Of a stretch of 24,000 nucleotides of DNA, positions 9,766 through 17,893 are shown one piece after another. The stretch's first letter is position 1, and each line of letters begins with the position of its first letter. Position numbers and translations under genes: made by a program. The stretch comes from an uncultured Kriegella sp. (GTDB lineage: Bacteria > Bacteroidota > Bacteroidia > Flavobacteriales > Flavobacteriaceae). The notes beneath the pieces are model-generated. The model saw only the letters and a list, made by a program, of their open reading frames with translations. It was not told where the DNA came from and did not search any database. The stretch is from contig CBDULZ010000028.1 in the NCBI GenBank assembly GCA_965368185.1, positions 11,716-35,715 on the forward strand. Reading direction: 5' to 3'.

Positions 9766-11103
9766 TTAGACCAACTCAAATGCACTCTTTATCGTGCTAT
9801 AAATTTTTTGAAGTTGGGCATCTGAAATTACATAGGGGGCCGAAATATATATCGTATTCCCAAGCGGACGCAAATATACCCCGTTATCCATAAAGTGTTT
9901 ATAAAGTCGATCCCTTAAATTCCCGTAGCGCTCCATTTTTACATTTAAGTCAAGCGCATAGATAATTCCACATTGTCGTGTACGCGCCACTTTTGGATGG
10001 TTCTTGATTTCGGCATCAAATTTTTGATGAGCGGCAACAACACGTTGTATGTCACTTTGAATTTCATCAGACCGTAACAGTTCTATTCCTGCCAAAGCCG
10101 TTGTACAGGCCAGGGGGTTAGCGGTATACGTATGCCCATGAAATAATCCCTTTATCAATTCGTCACTATAAAAAGCATCGTAAACCTTAGGGCTACAACT
10201 GGTAATCGCCATAGGCATCAAGCCGGCTGTCAGGGCCTTTGAAAAGCACATAATATCGGGTTTCGTTGTTATATGGTCGGAGGCAAAAAAACTTCCTGTT
10301 TTACCAAAACCAGTCATGACCTCATCGGCTATGGTCAATACATTGTGTTGTTGCAAAAGAGACACTATTCGATTTAACCCGTCTGCATCGTGCATTTTCA
10401 TTGCCGCCGCACCCTGCACAAGAGGTTCATAAATAAATGCGGCAATATTGTTTTGTTTCAGTCTATTCCCTAAAGAAACAAGAACACTTTCTATATTCTC
10501 TTTTGTTGGTACGGGAATACGCTCTACCTCAATAAAAAAATCTTCAAAAGGACCGTTGTATACCGATAAGCTAGAAACCGACATGGCGCCAAAAGTATCG
10601 CCGTGAAAACCATCTTCAAAAGCCAACAAAACATGCTGTTTATTCCCTTGATTGTGATGATATTGCAGTGCCATTTTAATGCCTACTTCCACGGCCGTAG
10701 ATCCATTATCGGAAAAAAAAAGTTTCTTTTGGTTTTCCGGTAAGATGCTTATCAATGCCTCTGATAATTTGACAGCAGGCTCATGCGTAAAACCACTGAA
10801 AACCACCTGATCCAATTGCTGCATTTGCCTATACACCTTTTTTAGGATAAAATCGTTGCAATGCCCATAAACACTGGTGTACCAAGAGGCAATTCCATCA
10901 ATGTATTCGACACCGTTCTCATCGTACAATACGGCACCCTTGGCCTTTATGATAGGCAACATTTCAGGATGCAGTTTGTGCTGTGTCAAGGGGTGCCACA
11001 AGTATTTTTTATCTCTTTCCGCTAGATTTTTCAAAACAATTGAATTCGTTAAACTCGCTTTTTCTATCTTGCAAAGATGGGAATTAATCCCTAAACAATT
11101 CAT
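9766..11103 (-). CDS. bioA: Adenosylmethionine-8-amino-7-oxononanoate aminotransferase
   Basis: The class-III aminotransferase/BioA signature ERDKKYLWHPLTQH is near the N-terminus, and ...DEVMTGFGKTG.. and FSKALTAG (PLP lysine) follow. The track start at 11193 would add ~50 aa of non-conserved sequence. Likely starts are ATG 11103 or TTG 11034, the latter giving MKNLAERDKKYLWHP. Confidence 0.9.
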   Translation of the reverse strand: MNCLGINSHLCKIEKASLTNSIVLKNLAERDKKYLWHPLTQHKLHPEMLPIIKAKGAVLYDENGVEYIDGIASWYTSVYGHCNDFILKKVYRQMQQLDQVVFSGFTHEPAVKLSEALISILPENQKKLFFSDNGSTAVEVGIKMALQYHHNQGNKQHVLLAFEDGFHGDTFGAMSVSSLSVYNGPFEDFFIEVERIPVPTKENIESVLVSLGNRLKQNNIAAFIYEPLVQGAAAMKMHDADGLNRIVSLLQQHNVLTIADEVMTGFGKTGSFFASDHITTKPDIMCFSKALTAGLMPMAITSCSPKVYDAFYSDELIKGLFHGHTYTANPLACTTALAGIELLRSDEIQSDIQRVVAAHQKFDAEIKNHPKVARTRQCGIIYALDLNVKMERYGNLRDRLYKHFMDNGVYLRPLGNTIYISAPYVISDAQLQKIYSTIKSAFELV

Positions 11104-12589
11104 GTTCCAAAGGCTTATACATTCATTGCTAAACAACTGCGATTCCCTGAAAAACCGTACTGTTTTTATGGTTCTATTTTTGACCGCATTCATTATTCGA
11201 TTCCCTTTTTTTTTTCGGGATTATATCGACCGCGATGAAAGCACCTTCATTTTAATGGGACAATCTTGGGTCGATGGGTACCTACCCTATACCCAACTCT
11301 GGGACCTCAAGCCACCAGTTGTCTTTCTTTTTTTTGCAACCATCATCTATAGTTTTGGCAAAAGTTATTTCGCCATTCGATTCTTTGGAGTTATCATCGT
11401 TATGCTGACCGCATTTTTTACCTATAAAATCGGTGAAACGGCGAAATCTAAAAAAATAGGGCTATGGTCAGCCATCGGTTGTGTCTTGCTCTTGAGCCTT
11501 TTCGGAAGTCTACAAGGCGTAATGTCAGAACATATTTGTATGTTGTTTTTCGTTCCTGCCCTTTATCTTTTGGTACGTTATAAAAAATTGTGGGCCTACT
11601 GTTGTGCCGGACTTTTATTCGGGCTGGCGGTAATGTCTAAATTGAATATCGCTTATGTGATTCTTGTTTTATGCTTATATCTGTTATATCAGAACTACAC
11701 CGAAAAAAGATTTTGGACGGGGTTTGTACATCTTGTTGGTCTCGGCTTAAGCCTTGTGTTTGTTATACTTTTAACTTTATTACCCTATTTTTTTCAAGGC
11801 CAAACGGAAATTTGGTGGAATTCGGTTGTCATGGCTCCCATCGAGTATTCGGCCTCGCAACAGAACCCGATATACAAAACAGCCCCTTTCTGCGTCATTA
11901 TTCTAGTTTTCTTATTTCTTACATGGAAAAAGAAACTTTTAAACGTTAAAGACCGAACGGTAGCTCTTTTAGTTGTTACCGTTTTAGGGATAATACTTAT
12001 GTTTTTTTTGGGTGGGAAGGTCAACGGGCATTATTTGATTCAATTCCACCCTGTATTCATTGTACTGTTCGCAATGGTACTAGGGCAGGTTAGCCTATTT
12101 CATTTTAGGAAGCTGATAGGTTATCTGCCGATTCTATTACTTTTACTTCCTATGGAAAGCTATTTGGAATACGCCAACATCATTAAGAATCGATGGGAAA
12201 AAGGCACTTTTTATAATGGCGAAGGAATTGATGTACCCAACTACATCCTTGAAAAAGGTATGGAAACCGAGAATATACTCTTCCTGGAATACCATATTGG
12301 TTATTGGGGTTTAGAGCAAACACCACCGACAGTGGCAGCGACGCATCCGAGCAACATTTTGCGGGAAGCCCTTTTTCCGTATTATAAAAACCCGAGAAAA
12401 ACGGGTCTGGAAGAACTGCGCCATATCATGGAAAACATCCAACCACAAACAGTGATCACCCGAAAGAACAAAAGGGTATTCGATGAACAATACGAAGATG
12501 CAAATGCCTATATCAACGGCTATTTAGAAGTCCATTATACGCTTAACACCACCATTGGCAACGCCAACATACACCAAAGACTAGAGTGA
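11102..12589 (+). CDS. GT-C fold (GT39/ArnT-like) polytopic membrane glycosyltransferase
   Basis: There are about 10 or more hydrophobic segments. The first-loop acidic motif RDYIDRDESTF follows TM1 (MVLFLTAFIIRFPFFF), as in PMT/ArnT-type enzymes, and the C-terminal domain is soluble. Track ORF residues 1-75 are antisense to bioA and are rejected. The start is ATG 11102 or ATG 11168. Confidence 0.7.
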   Translation: MFQRLIHSLLNNCDSLKNRTVFMVLFLTAFIIRFPFFFRDYIDRDESTFILMGQSWVDGYLPYTQLWDLKPPVVFLFFATIIYSFGKSYFAIRFFGVIIVMLTAFFTYKIGETAKSKKIGLWSAIGCVLLLSLFGSLQGVMSEHICMLFFVPALYLLVRYKKLWAYCCAGLLFGLAVMSKLNIAYVILVLCLYLLYQNYTEKRFWTGFVHLVGLGLSLVFVILLTLLPYFFQGQTEIWWNSVVMAPIEYSASQQNPIYKTAPFCVIILVFLFLTWKKKLLNVKDRTVALLVVTVLGIILMFFLGGKVNGHYLIQFHPVFIVLFAMVLGQVSLFHFRKLIGYLPILLLLLPMESYLEYANIIKNRWEKGTFYNGEGIDVPNYILEKGMETENILFLEYHIGYWGLEQTPPTVAATHPSNILREALFPYYKNPRKTGLEELRHIMENIQPQTVITRKNKRVFDEQYEDANAYINGYLEVHYTLNTTIGNANIHQRLE

Positions 12590-13198
12590 CTCGAGCACAC
12601 CCTTAAACTTCTTGGCATATTTACTAATAATCTGTTTATCAAATTTTTCTTCCTCATCGATCCTACCAATCAATGAAACACCTGTTTTGTGCAATATAAT
12701 ATTTTCGGTATGCGGATTGGCATCTCCACTGAATAATACCGAGACGTCATACCCTTTTACCGTAAGCCAATTAATAGTCAATAAAGAATGGTTGATGCTG
12801 CCTAAATAATGTCGGGAAACCACTATAACCTTATAACTGGGCATAATAATATCGAACATGGTATCTTCGTCATTCAATGGTACCAGTAACCCTCCTGCCC
12901 CTTCAATGACCAAGTGGTTCGACGTCTTCGGTTCATTAATATGAAAACGGTCTATTCGCTGCCCGTCAATTTCAGCTGAGGCGTGCGGACTCATTGCCGT
13001 CTTTAGTTCATAGCTGCTTTTATGAATTACTGTTTTATCGTTGGAAATCAAGGATTTGACCTTATGGCTGTCTGAATTATCTAAATCCCCTGCCTGTATC
13101 GGTTTCCAATAATCAGCCTGTAAGGCTTCCGTTATAATGGCAGAGGCCATTGTTTTTCCAACTCCGGTCGATATTCCCGTGACAAAAATTTGCTTCAT
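12581..13198 (-). CDS. bioD: Dethiobiotin synthase (ATP-dependent)
   Basis: The N-terminus is MKQIFVTGISTGVGKTMASAIITEAL..YWKPIQAG, with a P-loop and the conserved K. EGAGGLLVPL is also present. The product is 205 aa. Confidence 0.9.
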   Translation of the reverse strand: MKQIFVTGISTGVGKTMASAIITEALQADYWKPIQAGDLDNSDSHKVKSLISNDKTVIHKSSYELKTAMSPHASAEIDGQRIDRFHINEPKTSNHLVIEGAGGLLVPLNDEDTMFDIIMPSYKVIVVSRHYLGSINHSLLTINWLTVKGYDVSVLFSGDANPHTENIILHKTGVSLIGRIDEEEKFDKQIISKYAKKFKGVLESL

Positions 13199-13635
13199 AT
13201 ATTGAACTTGTTTTTACAATTATCACACCGATATTCATATTTGGTATAGAATGGAAGTACTCCAAAAATAAATCCAAATAAAAAAGAAACCAGTGATTTA
13301 AAGTCTTTAACATTGGTAAAATAATCAATCTCTTTACTGTTACAGTTCGGGCATATGATATCATTACCTTGATCATCGATCGAGTAGCGATTTATAGATT
13401 TCAAGATTCGAATTGCCTCAACTTCATCTTCTGAACGAACTTTGAGCTTGACTCCACCAATAGCATTACTGACCAATGGATCGGTATCAATAGTAAGGTT
13501 ATCAGATAGAAAAACCGGGATACCTTCGGTTTCCAGCCGCCCCTTTACGATTTGTGCCTCTGAAGAATACTGAAAAGACGCAACTGTGCTAAAAATTCGG
13601 TCGTCCTTAACATATTCGAGTTTCCTTATCGTCAA
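13195..13635 (-). CDS. DUF2007-like domain protein with a zinc ribbon split by a TM helix
   Basis: The product is 146 aa. The N-terminal ~75 aa (FQYSSEAQIVKGRLETEGIPVFLSD...VKLKVRSEDEVEAIRIL) resemble the DUF2007 'putative signal transducing' fold. CPNC follows, then a hydrophobic helix (LVSFLFGFIFGVLPFY), then CDNC. There is no internal Met, and the only plausible start is TTG at 13635. The stop overlaps the bioD start as ATGA (13195-13198), and the start lies 12 nt after the bioF stop. Confidence 0.65.
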   Translation of the reverse strand: MTIRKLEYVKDDRIFSTVASFQYSSEAQIVKGRLETEGIPVFLSDNLTIDTDPLVSNAIGGVKLKVRSEDEVEAIRILKSINRYSIDDQGNDIICPNCNSKEIDYFTNVKDFKSLVSFLFGFIFGVLPFYTKYEYRCDNCKNKFNI

Positions 13636-13647
13636 AATACAGCGGAA

Positions 13648-14808
13648 TTACACTTCTTCCGTAAAAATAGCTAATAATTGTAAAACTTGCCTTATTTCTT
13701 TCTTTGTATTAAAACTATGTATACAGATTCGTAGGCGTTCTTCTCCTTTAGGAACGGTTGGGGAAAGAATAGGGCGTATGTCAAATCCTTCGTTTTGAAG
13801 TTTTGTGGCAATTGAACGAACCCTGTCATTGCCCGTACACAAGCAACAATGTATTGTTGAAGCACTTGGGATAAAAAGCGATTTCAAATTTAAAGATTCG
13901 GCCTGTTGAATAAAATAATCTATATTTTCCTTCAGCTGGGTCTTTGCCTTATTAAGTTCCTCAAGCTTGCCATAGGCGGCCAATATCGCAGCGATAGCAT
14001 GAGGTGGAAGTCCGGTGGTAAATACAAAGCTTCTTGCAAAATTCACTAAGTAGTTTTTTAGGGAAAGGGAGCCCAAAACTGCCGCCCCGTGCGCTCCAAT
14101 GGCTTTTCCAAAGGTTATTATCCGGGCAAAAACGGTATCTTGTAGATTTAGCTGCTGCACCAGACCTTCCCCCTTTTCACCAAAGACCCCGACCGCATGT
14201 GCTTCATCCACAACAAAAAAACAGTTGTATTTTTCACCGATTTGCGCCATGGCTTTTAAATCTGGGGAGTCGCCATCCATGGAAAAGACTGATTCGGTTA
14301 CAATATAAATAGCCGCATCGGGAGCACTTCGGCTGCGTTCCGTATCACATTTTTTTTTCAGATCCGAAAGACTATTATGATTGAATTTATAGTTTTTGGC
14401 ATTCCCGAGCTTGATACCGTCGCGTATACTGGCATGTATATATTCATCATACAAAACTATATCTCCGCGTTGCGGAACGGCACTGAAAAATCCGATATTG
14501 GCGTCGTAGCCCGAATTAAAGACCAAAGCTTCTTCTGCTTCATGGAAAGTAGCGATCTTCATCTCCAATTCTTTATAATACGGATGGTTACCCGTAAGAA
14601 GACGAGAGCCTGTTGCTCCATTCTGAACCTTTCCGCTTGTCAAAAGTATCTCGGACGTTTTATTAAGAAGGGATTCGTCTCTAGAAAATCCAAGATAATC
14701 ATTTGACGAAAAATCAACTAAATGGCTATTGTCGATTAAGCTACGGAGTGCATTCGCCTCTTTTCTTTTGTCAATTTTAGCTTCTAATTTTTTTGGGAAC
14801 CGGACCAT
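13648..14808 (-). CDS. bioF: 8-amino-7-oxononanoate synthase
   Basis: It belongs to the alpha-oxoamine synthase family. Signatures are FSSNDYLGFS, GATGSRLLTGN, SGYDANIG, VVDEAHAVGVFG and TFGKAIGAHGA (PLP lysine). The product is 386 aa. Confidence 0.9.
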   Translation of the reverse strand: MVRFPKKLEAKIDKRKEANALRSLIDNSHLVDFSSNDYLGFSRDESLLNKTSEILLTSGKVQNGATGSRLLTGNHPYYKELEMKIATFHEAEEALVFNSGYDANIGFFSAVPQRGDIVLYDEYIHASIRDGIKLGNAKNYKFNHNSLSDLKKKCDTERSRSAPDAAIYIVTESVFSMDGDSPDLKAMAQIGEKYNCFFVVDEAHAVGVFGEKGEGLVQQLNLQDTVFARIITFGKAIGAHGAAVLGSLSLKNYLVNFARSFVFTTGLPPHAIAAILAAYGKLEELNKAKTQLKENIDYFIQQAESLNLKSLFIPSASTIHCCLCTGNDRVRSIATKLQNEGFDIRPILSPTVPKGEERLRICIHSFNTKKEIRQVLQLLAIFTEEV

Positions 14809-14812
14809 ATAT

Positions 14813-14820
14813 CAAATTTA
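14813..14820 (-). promoter_or_regulatory. Candidate -7 box (TAAATTTG on the minus strand) only 4 nt upstream of the bioF ATG
   Basis: The plus strand reads caaattta, an exact TAnnTTTG match on the minus strand. Its position implies a leaderless or near-leaderless bioF mRNA if it is used. There is no other exact match in the 14809-14889 spacer. Confidence 0.25.
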
Positions 14821-14889
14821 CTACCTTTAAAGACGAGTTCTAAAACTTGGTGAATTATTCTTTAATTTTTTTTGACAAAACTTCGAGCT

Positions 14890-15420
14890 ATGATTATTTG
14901 CAAACAAGTTTCGGAAGAAGCCGAACTCGTTCAAATTTTGAAGCTGCAGCAACAGAATCTGAGTGCTATTTTGAAAGAATCGGAAAGAAAACATGAAGGG
15001 TTTGTCACTGTATCACATACCTTGGACATGTTAAAGGAAATGAACCATGCTTGTCCACATATTATCGCAGAGTCAAATGGCAAGGTCGTAGGATATGCTT
15101 TATGCATGCACCCCCAATTTGCCGATACCATCGAAGTATTAAAGCCCATGTTCTATGAAATAAATAAAACATTGCCTAAAACCGAAAACTATTTGGTCAT
15201 GGGACAAATCTGTATTGCCAAAGCCTATCGAAGACAAGGAATCTTTCGCAAACTATATGAAACGATGCAAAACAGCATCGCCCCTAATTTCAAAAGTATT
15301 ATTACTGAAGTTGACCGTAAAAACACAAGATCGATAAATGCGCATTATGCAGTTGGCTTCGAGCATCTAAAAAGTTATCAATCGGGGGGGCAACAATGGG
15401 AATTGATTATTCTAAGGTAA
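14890..15420 (+). CDS. GNAT family N-acetyltransferase
   Basis: An acetyl-CoA binding-type segment is present (QICIAKAYRRQGIFRKLYETM), matching the R/Q-x-x-G-x-G/A-like motif A, and the size is typical for GNAT. The track start is TTG 14872. I prefer ATG 14890 (MIICKQVSEE...). Confidence 0.7.
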   Translation: MIICKQVSEEAELVQILKLQQQNLSAILKESERKHEGFVTVSHTLDMLKEMNHACPHIIAESNGKVVGYALCMHPQFADTIEVLKPMFYEINKTLPKTENYLVMGQICIAKAYRRQGIFRKLYETMQNSIAPNFKSIITEVDRKNTRSINAHYAVGFEHLKSYQSGGQQWELIILR

Positions 15421-15946
15421 TGGGCTCGACCTTTATCCAAACATAGTTATTCGGTTGCGTTGCGTCCAATAGATCTACATTCAATTTAAGTGCTACTAAT
15501 TTCCCCATAGCAAAAGCCGGTTCTGGGTCAGCACTGTCATAAACATTAAAATGCCTATTCTTCTTATACCACAAATTGGTTTCAAAAATATAATTCCCAT
15601 TTTTTTTAGGTTGTTTGAATACTGAAACATATTCAACTTCCGGAAGTTTTTTCCATTGTCCCACAAATATTGGACCTATGCTATACTGAACTTTATATCT
15701 TTTTGTATCTAAATCGAAAAGTACACGTTTTATCAAGGAAAACAAGACACCTTGCGTCAAACAGGCGATTGCAAGCCATATGACACTAAAATCCCATCTT
15801 GGAGAATGTCCTTCTGAAGGAAACACTTCATAACCAAAAAAGAACATCGCCAGCAATACAACTGAGATGGTGTAAAAAAAAGAAGCTGTGAGACTTTGCC
15901 AAAATGGCCGGCTTCCTTCTGAGATAATGATTTTTCTTTCGCCCAT
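15407..15946 (-). CDS. Hypothetical two-TM membrane protein
   Basis: There are two hydrophobic helices (FFYTISVVLLAMFFFGY and VIWLAIACLTQGVLFSLI) followed by a ~100-aa soluble domain, with no recognisable family. The track start ATG 15976 lies inside the atpC terminator palindrome, so I prefer ATG 15946 (MGERK...). The 3' end overlaps the GNAT 3' end by 14 nt. Confidence 0.5.
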   Translation of the reverse strand: MGERKIIISEGSRPFWQSLTASFFYTISVVLLAMFFFGYEVFPSEGHSPRWDFSVIWLAIACLTQGVLFSLIKRVLFDLDTKRYKVQYSIGPIFVGQWKKLPEVEYVSVFKQPKKNGNYIFETNLWYKKNRHFNVYDSADPEPAFAMGKLVALKLNVDLLDATQPNNYVWIKVEPITLE

Positions 15947-15960
15947 TATTTCAACTAACG

Positions 15961-15995
15961 AAAAAAGGCCATACAATTGTATGGCCCTTTCTTCT
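15961..15995. terminator. Bidirectional rho-independent terminator, mainly serving atpDC
   Basis: ggccatacaattgtatggcc (15967-15986) is a perfect 20-nt palindrome. It is flanked by aaaaaa on one side and ctttcttct on the other. Read on the minus strand, the stem is followed by tttttt. Confidence 0.8.
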
Positions 15996-16015
15996 ATACA
16001 TCATATTCTCACCAA

Positions 16016-16294
16016 CTATTCTGCAAGAACAATTACTTTGTTGTCTTTCATTTCAAGCGTTCCACTAGAAATTGGCAGAACCATCTTTCCGTTCTCATCT
16101 TTTGAAAACTTGCCCTCATAAGCCTTCTTGATTATAATGTTACCTTCGAATTTGACTTTACCCTTCTGCAATAAGGACACTATTGGCGCATGATTTTCCA
16201 ACATCTGAAATTCCCCGTCAACCCCCGGCACAGTAACCGAGCTAACTTCTCCGGCGAATAAGGTCGCTTCTGGCGATACGATTTCTAAATACAT
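16016..16294 (-). CDS. atpC: F0F1 ATP synthase subunit epsilon, short form
   Basis: The N-terminus MYLEIVSPEATLFAGEVSSVTVPGVDGEFQMLENHAPIVSLL is the epsilon beta-sandwich domain. The protein is only 92 aa and lies immediately downstream of atpD. Confidence 0.85.
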   Translation of the reverse strand: MYLEIVSPEATLFAGEVSSVTVPGVDGEFQMLENHAPIVSLLQKGKVKFEGNIIIKKAYEGKFSKDENGKMVLPISSGTLEMKDNKVIVLAE

Positions 16295-16372
16295 ATTCTA
16301 TAGTTGTTGGTTGCTAGTTGTCGCTTAATGTTTCAGGCTCTCCAAAACAATAAACAGTCAACTATCGACTAA

Positions 16373-17893
<1,521 letters not shown>

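Follow-up and report, generated by a model that had tools for sequence, protein, structure and literature searches.

What is the job of a small protein whose gene sits between two genes of biotin synthesis and even overlaps the second? The question arises from a 24,000-nt stretch of DNA from an uncultured Kriegella sp. of the Flavobacteriaceae (contig CBDULZ010000028.1, positions 11,716 to 35,715), the whole of which is referred to as the window in the following. Here, a 146-aa protein, designated X, is encoded between bioF and bioD, and an initial annotation had taken this coupling as suggestive of a function in the pathway. A dedicated biotin-pathway role of X is unlikely, because the gene is kept in genomes without bioD and bioB, is absent from many bio operons, occupies a slot that also takes other genes and belongs to a family wider than this linkage. 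With moderate confidence, X can instead be interpreted as a membrane-tethered small DUF2007 sensor/adaptor of biotin-independent function which is co-expressed with the bio genes via inherited gene order. It would be a long-term resident between bioF and bioD in Flavobacteriaceae, neither obligatory for nor dedicated to biotin synthesis.

Gene X, apparently encoding a DUF2007 plus split zinc-ribbon protein, extends from 13195 to 13635 on the minus strand. Its TTG start codon (13633–13635, minus strand) follows the bioF stop at a distance of 12 nt, with the junction consisting of the bioF TAA, the spacer ttccgctgtatt and the TTG. At the other end, the X stop codon TGA (13195–13197) shares bases with the ATG of bioD (13196–13198), forming an ATGA overlap (13195–13198, minus strand). 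All these statements of the initial annotation are confirmed. X is a genuine gene under purifying selection. More than 1200 homologues were found, termed "DUF2007 domain-containing protein" or "putative signal transducing protein" in their sources, with the closest ones stemming from Kriegella (88–92% identity). Comparison with the Kriegella aquimaris orthologue resulted in a synonymous divergence (dS) of 0.58 and a nonsynonymous divergence (dN) of 0.064, corresponding to a dN/dS of 0.11, and an alignment of 92 homologues shows 24 invariant columns including all four cysteine residues. Clustering at 50% identity yielded 309 clusters with E ≤ 1e-10, mostly of full-length sequences of about 130–145 aa. 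Judged from these matches, X belongs to a widespread Bacteroidota family of small proteins (about 135–146 aa) for which the name DUF2007 is already in use at NCBI and UniRef.

These data bear directly on the explanation that X is non-functional, i.e., a spurious open reading frame (ORF) in the bioF-bioD spacer or a mere translational-coupling device for bioD. Such a view could draw on the start codon not being ATG, on the first 14 codons, where constraint is not detectable (dN/dS about 1.3 on very few sites), and on operons without X, in which bioF is directly coupled to bioD. Against this stand the dN/dS of 0.11, the conservation of the protein sequence across the phylum and the retention of X, with an ATG of its own, in genomes lacking a downstream bioD, leaving a negligible probability for a lack of function; as a spurious ORF, X is ruled out by the conservation data. 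The TTG start is plausible from sequence comparison, as it is the only ATG, GTG or TTG ahead of the conserved core, is also present in K. aquimaris and is found as ATG at the homologous position in a related genus (G106). Most family members have 137 aa and an ATG start aligning to window residues 11–12. Since the window does not possess ATG, GTG or TTG at these residues, no standard start other than the upstream TTG is available, and the N-terminal extension, in view of the unconstrained first 14 codons, is probably a loose tail. The complete lack of internal methionine, already recorded in the initial annotation, has no deeper meaning, as relatives do carry internal Met; it merely removes alternative ATG starts.

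Occurrence of X with and without biotin genes

For assessing the linkage, one genome from each of 150 other Flavobacteriaceae genera was searched for X and BioD. X was found adjacent to bioD in 57 genera and on a different contig in one (G021, with a divergent copy of 38% identity), while 11 genera possess X but no bioD, 32 possess bioD but no full-length X and 49 have neither. The 69 X-bearing genera include two stop-containing copies (G112 and G102), which were assigned to the genera with X next to bioD. Hence, X adjoins bioD in 57 of 69 X-bearing genera; the complete order bioF-X-bioD was seen in 20 of 29 loci inspected directly, usually with the ATGA junction, which is found in most relatives having bioD downstream of X. 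The bioF-X-bioD order, suspected to be conserved in the initial annotation, is a real and old feature of the Flavobacteriaceae.

Some genomes carry a second, divergent X copy (35–38% identity) away from bio genes (L043:7807-8202 in G071 and L041:8117-8509 in G021), with G071 having one bio-linked and one unlinked copy. In G112, the X gene (L042:7682-8105) shows a +1 frameshift just past the first CxxC motif and next to an A-run, with both halves otherwise intact and intact bioF and bioD. As this may be either recent decay or an assembly error, the copy was excluded from the evidence.

A component of the biotin pathway should be lost or decayed where the pathway has been lost, but intact X is present in 11 bioD-negative genera. 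Nine of the 11 corresponding genomes are at least 95% complete, and eight of these nine also lack bioB, as judged with a query that detected bioB in G126 and G021. In the bio-less genomes, the surroundings of X are still those seen in the window, with atpD on one side and the u292/u165/w157 genes on the other, but bioF and bioD are missing from its flanks. This is exemplified by G146, where the order w157, u292, PMT, X, GNAT, atpD equals that of the window minus all bio genes. Seven X copies from bioD-negative genera were examined and all are intact and have retained the invariant residues. Among these seven, the proportion of differing synonymous sites (pS) amounts to 0.64–0.85, i.e., these sites are saturated, compared to only 0.13–0.27 for nonsynonymous sites (pN). 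Intact genes with pN far below saturated pS indicate that selection has maintained X for a long time after the loss of biotin synthesis.

Conversely, X is not present wherever the pathway is, being missing in 32 of 90 bioD-positive genera. Given this and its persistence in bioD-less genera, a biotin-pathway role as deduced from the coupling is not supported. In the 16 X-less operons inspected, the gap between bioF and bioD measures a few to about 110 nt in most cases, and the context atpD ... bioF-bioD-bioA-KAS-bioB is shared, where KAS denotes a FabF-like ketosynthase gene. The latter had initially been considered as encoding a possible partner of X. All 16 operons retain it, so that X and KAS are not co-dependent. 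In a tree based on BioF and BioD, X-positive and X-negative operons are interleaved, requiring at least seven changes on the best tree. As only two branches are well supported, multiple independent losses of X are suggested but not demonstrated. Moreover, the position between bioF and bioD can be filled by other genes. In G114, it harbors a PIN-like protein gene and a small upstream partner resembling a toxin-antitoxin pair (L081:2143-3069), and in G134 a GIY-YIG-like ORF (L080:3607-3990). Both were identified by eye from motifs and not via HMM (hidden Markov model) searches. The bioF-bioD slot is tolerant of unrelated cargo.

The family also extends well beyond the linkage. In a phylum-wide sample of 300 Bacteroidota genomes, at least nine further families contain full-length homologues with the DUF2007/CxxC/hydrophobic/CxxC layout, and bioF or bioD was not found within 1.5 kb of X homologues in the other families sampled. 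These distant homologues do not share conserved neighbours beyond one genus. The bio-gene neighbourhood is thus conserved in 57 genera within Flavobacteriaceae and seen in none of the other Bacteroidota families sampled. The initial annotation had regarded random scattering of homologues as refuting a biotin role; this situation is indeed encountered outside Flavobacteriaceae, where contexts are unrelated, but not within the family.

Predicted architecture and possible role of X

The guess of a DUF2007 domain in the initial annotation is substantiated by HMM searches. The window protein matches PF09413 with an E value of 4.1e-5 and 24.1 bits, missing the gathering score of 25.7 narrowly by 1.6 bits, while 91 of 92 close homologues match at E ≤ 0.01 (best value 4.3e-8) and 8 of 10 distant homologues reach the gathering score. 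The domain comprises residues 15–81 (13393–13593, minus strand) with a predicted strand-helix-strand-strand-helix order. In an AlphaFold 2 (AF2) model built from the 92-sequence alignment (mean predicted local distance difference test score, pLDDT, of 74.7), these elements are assigned to residues 15–21, 24–36, 41–44, 62–67 and 68–80, respectively, followed in the C-terminal part by a strand (103–108), a helix (112–124) and a further strand (132–137). The N-terminal domain is proposed to adopt a PII/ACT-like alpha-beta fold. Strands 2 and 3 are connected by a highly conserved loop of residues 45–61 (13453–13503, minus strand) with D45, T48, D52, P53, S56, A58, I59, G60, G61 and K63 invariant in all 92 sequences, and its motif is still recognisable in distant Bacteroidota families. 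Although the best-conserved part of X, the loop is the least confident one in the model (pLDDT of 52 at residues 51–60), in line with predicted flexibility. The functional surface of the DUF2007 domain is probably this flexible loop, which by position would correspond to the T-loop of PII proteins.

Cysteine is found in X only at positions 95, 98, 137 and 140, forming the motifs CPNC and CDNC. The layout of CPNC, hydrophobic stretch and CDNC described in the initial annotation is borne out by composition and Kyte-Doolittle analysis. The first putative zinc knuckle (C95 and C98; 13342–13353, minus strand) is invariant and kept in other Bacteroidota families, and the second one (C137 and C140; 13216–13227, minus strand) likewise has invariant Cys and is covered by weak zinc-ribbon HMM matches, which were obtained for 87 of the 92 family members. 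Zinc binding by a split ribbon may be deduced from these sequence features. The most hydrophobic stretch of X sits between the CxxC pairs, spanning about 17 residues (114–130; 13246–13296, minus strand) with a 15-residue core (115–129) of a mean Kyte-Doolittle value of 2.34 and with basic residues on both flanks (K101, K110 and K113 on one side, K132, R136, K141 and K143 on the other). An equivalent hydrophobic, aromatic-rich stretch as well as the CxxC layout are conserved in all distant homologues. The initial annotation had labelled this stretch TM, for which another reading is preferable. Two knuckles forming one metal site cannot straddle the membrane and, considering also the basic flanks and the lack of a signal peptide, the segment is most likely a monotopic or re-entrant anchor in the cytoplasmic (inner) leaflet.

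The four invariant Cys in two CxxC knuckles could alternatively point to a metal/sulfur handling factor, i.e., a rubredoxin-like iron site or an Fe-S helper for biotin enzymes such as BioB. One distant homologue does weakly match a rubredoxin-like model (E value of 0.0073), and with BsaP, as cited in PMC12915131, there is a known case of a small protein that assists BioB. Yet, the knuckles match zinc-ribbon models far more often than rubredoxin models, X adjoins bioF and bioD and not bioB, and it is kept in genomes without bioB and missing from many with bioB. This makes such a function very improbable.

In the favoured interpretation as a tethered small sensor/adaptor, the PII/ACT-like DUF2007 domain would act through the flexible loop between strands 2 and 3. 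Both CxxC knuckles would meet on one metal ion, with the hydrophobic segment dipping into the cytoplasmic leaflet in a LITAF-like manner, and the partner would be other than a biotin enzyme. X would share its message with bioF and bioD and hand ribosomes to the latter through the ATGA overlap. The sensor/adaptor role is deduced from this predicted architecture, and several findings weigh against the interpretation as a whole. X and bioD are adjacent in 57 of the 58 genera having both, often with the ATGA overlap, and X is commoner among bioD-positive (58 of 90) than among bioD-negative genera (11 of 60). In 7 of 13 auxotrophic genera carrying a cassette for a MocR-like regulator and a TonB-dependent receptor, X lies within about 4 kb of these genes, and the cassette itself may be vitamin-related. 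A looser relation to biotin, via homeostasis or uptake, accordingly retains some limited likelihood. On the structural side, the AF2 model of X is only of moderate quality, and a Foldseek search with it against PDB did not return anything at E ≤ 0.001. The top matches were generic alpha-beta domains (type III secretion system ring motifs, 2hfv, ACT and PII), with 2hfv ranking third at non-significant values (E value of 0.039, template modelling scores of 0.38/0.54), and a sequence profile of the 92-member family did not match any PDB sequence at E ≤ 1.

The contrasting explanation for X is that of a biotin-related accessory protein or regulator. X could be a PII-like sensor tethered to the membrane and responding to ATP, to an intermediate of the pathway or to CO2/bicarbonate, the co-substrate of BioD, or it could modulate the homeostasis or uptake of biotin and in this way still be useful to auxotrophs. 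Besides the gene order with translational overlap in 57 genera and the enrichment in bioD-positive genera, this view could rely on the auxotrophs keeping X beside the MocR/PdxR-like regulator and the BtuB-like receptor. In addition, biotin synthesis in Elizabethkingia is under the control of BioL, a regulator of the MocR family (PMC12915131), and the small Cys-rich accessory protein BsaP, mentioned in the same paper, represents a precedent. However, about one third of the bioD-positive genera do without X in otherwise identical operons, eight genomes keep it without bioD and bioB, and the same architecture is found in unrelated contexts in other families. Moreover, a sequence feature tying X to biotin, acyl-ACP or DNA binding was not found, and the association with bioD could arise from physical linkage, i.e., co-deletion of linked genes, and shared ancestry without any functional tie. 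Hence, this explanation is regarded as rather unlikely. Still less probable, and indeed doubtful, is its most specific form, in which Flavobacteriaceae have recruited X into biotin metabolism as a membrane-tethered PII-like sensor that adjusts biotin acquisition or the output of BioF/BioD to a small ligand, such as ATP/ADP, CO2/bicarbonate or an intermediate of the pathway. If true, the biotin system of Bacteroidota would have in X its first accessory or regulatory protein, which would at the same time be a prokaryotic equivalent of the monotopic zinc anchor known from LITAF.

In biotin-auxotrophic relatives, the position of bioD-bioA-KAS-bioB is taken by two genes, one for the MocR/PdxR-like regulator of about 498 aa and one for a small TonB-dependent receptor of the BtuB-like type with about 606 aa, for example, at L034:4321-7714 (G073) and also in L033, L035, L036, L037 and L039. 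Among the 150 genera, the regulator has 13 close orthologues (at least 65% identity), every one of them in a bioD-negative genome; the genome of the window has none. The two genes are a candidate vitamin or biotin uptake module, and may in this respect turn out to be more useful than the result on X.

For X itself, the interpretation as a sensor/adaptor with biotin-independent function narrows the job of this DUF2007 sub-family to one that is useful with or without biotin synthesis and probably performed at the inner membrane face. It also is a warning against reading function from operon position, as even ATGA coupling and a location between the genes of two enzymes from the same pathway are compatible with a gene being a passenger over long times.

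Neighbouring genes and signals in the window

The upstream neighbour bioF (13648–14808, minus strand) encodes a putative 8-amino-7-oxononanoate synthase. Its best NCBIfam match is TIGR00858 (E value of 1.7e-105), albeit at 352.8 bits and, thus, under the curated cutoff of 426, and Pfam Aminotran_1_2 is matched as well. The ORF was named bioF because of this best match and its conserved position beside bioD, bioA and bioB. Downstream of X, bioD (12581–13198, minus strand; dethiobiotin synthase) matches TIGR00347 with 102 bits, over the NCBIfam cutoff. Further downstream on the same strand follow bioA, the KAS gene and bioB, preceded by an oppositely oriented PMT_2 gene.

This gene for a PMT_2/GT-C glycosyltransferase (about 11100–12589, plus strand) is wedged between bioD and bioA and was found only in a subset comprising the window, K. 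aquimaris, G019, G048, G146 and G439, while elsewhere bioD is mostly followed directly by bioA. The corresponding 570-aa ORF starting with GTG at 10877 is too long, its first about 60 residues being bioA antisense. The bioA ORF (9766–11193, minus strand; 475 aa) is probably over-extended at its 5' end as well, as homology begins only at about residue 45–56, and the K. aquimaris gene is called with 445 aa. Between atpC and the GNAT and bioF genes, a 189-aa protein is encoded (15407–15976, minus strand) whose N-terminal part has two hydrophobic helices, followed by a soluble tail, and for which no Pfam or NCBIfam match was obtained. In some bio-less genomes (L032 and L037), its homologue immediately precedes X, and in other genomes (L016 and L079) it is located upstream of bioF.

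An Rfam scan of positions 12000–16500 at E ≤ 0.1 did not reveal any RNA family. Bacteroidota-type –7 boxes (TAnnTTTG) occur eight times in 3.7 kb of the minus strand, which is too frequent for assigning a promoter. One of them, TAAATTTG at 14813–14820 (minus strand), ends 5 nt ahead of the bioF ATG. The bioF leader would consequently be very short or absent, although the frequency of these boxes leaves doubt.

Relation to known systems

X is most directly comparable with DUF2007 (PF09413, "putative prokaryotic signal transducing protein") and its founding structure PDB 2HFV. The N-terminal 65 residues of X match the Pfam model and the predicted order of alpha-beta elements agrees up to the last strand, which is ill-defined in the model, with X showing beta-alpha-beta-beta-alpha versus the beta-alpha-beta-beta-alpha-beta of the ferredoxin-like fold of 2HFV. 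The sub-family of X differs by the added C-terminal split zinc ribbon with its hydrophobic insert. The literature on DUF2007, judged mostly from titles and abstract openings, did not yield a functional study, the domain appearing in one case just as a row in a protein table, and a paper linking it to biotin was not found.

DUF2007 is presumably placed by Pfam in the GlnB-like clan. PII/GlnB-like and ACT domains, as in GlnK, SbtB and PstA/DarA, are likewise small alpha-beta proteins with a long, conserved and flexible loop between strands 2 and 3. Structures of both types are among the weak Foldseek matches of X, albeit with no significant match in sequence or structure. In contrast to the soluble PII proteins, X would be tethered.

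X can further be compared with BsaP, which, as described in PMC12915131, is required for mycobacterial BioB. Both proteins are small, contain Cys and are encoded together with biotin genes, but X is found in genomes lacking BioB and is missing from many that have it.

For the C-terminal part, the closest parallel in design is the eukaryotic LITAF/SIMPLE-like domain (PF10601), for which zinc binding and a monotopic membrane topology have been shown experimentally (PMC5095921, PMC5142333). Membership of X in this family was considered and rejected. The alignment covers positions 4–65 of the 70-position model, but its 16.8 bits do not reach the gathering score of 23.8, and E ≤ 0.01 is attained by only 19 of 92 close homologues (best E value of 6.4e-5) and 1 of 10 distant ones. 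Because these scores are sub-threshold and not recurrent, LITAF serves here as an analogy of architecture, and X is not assigned to its family; the resemblance is one of design, for which the scores do not support a claim of homology. Both proteins share the CxxC-hydrophobic-CxxC layout within about 50–70 residues, the hydrophobic stretch having 22 residues in LITAF versus about 17 in X, and would follow the same logic, with both knuckles required on one side of the membrane. In the family of X, bacteria may thereby have a recurrent anchor that is built as a split zinc ribbon and is similar in design to LITAF of eukaryotes.

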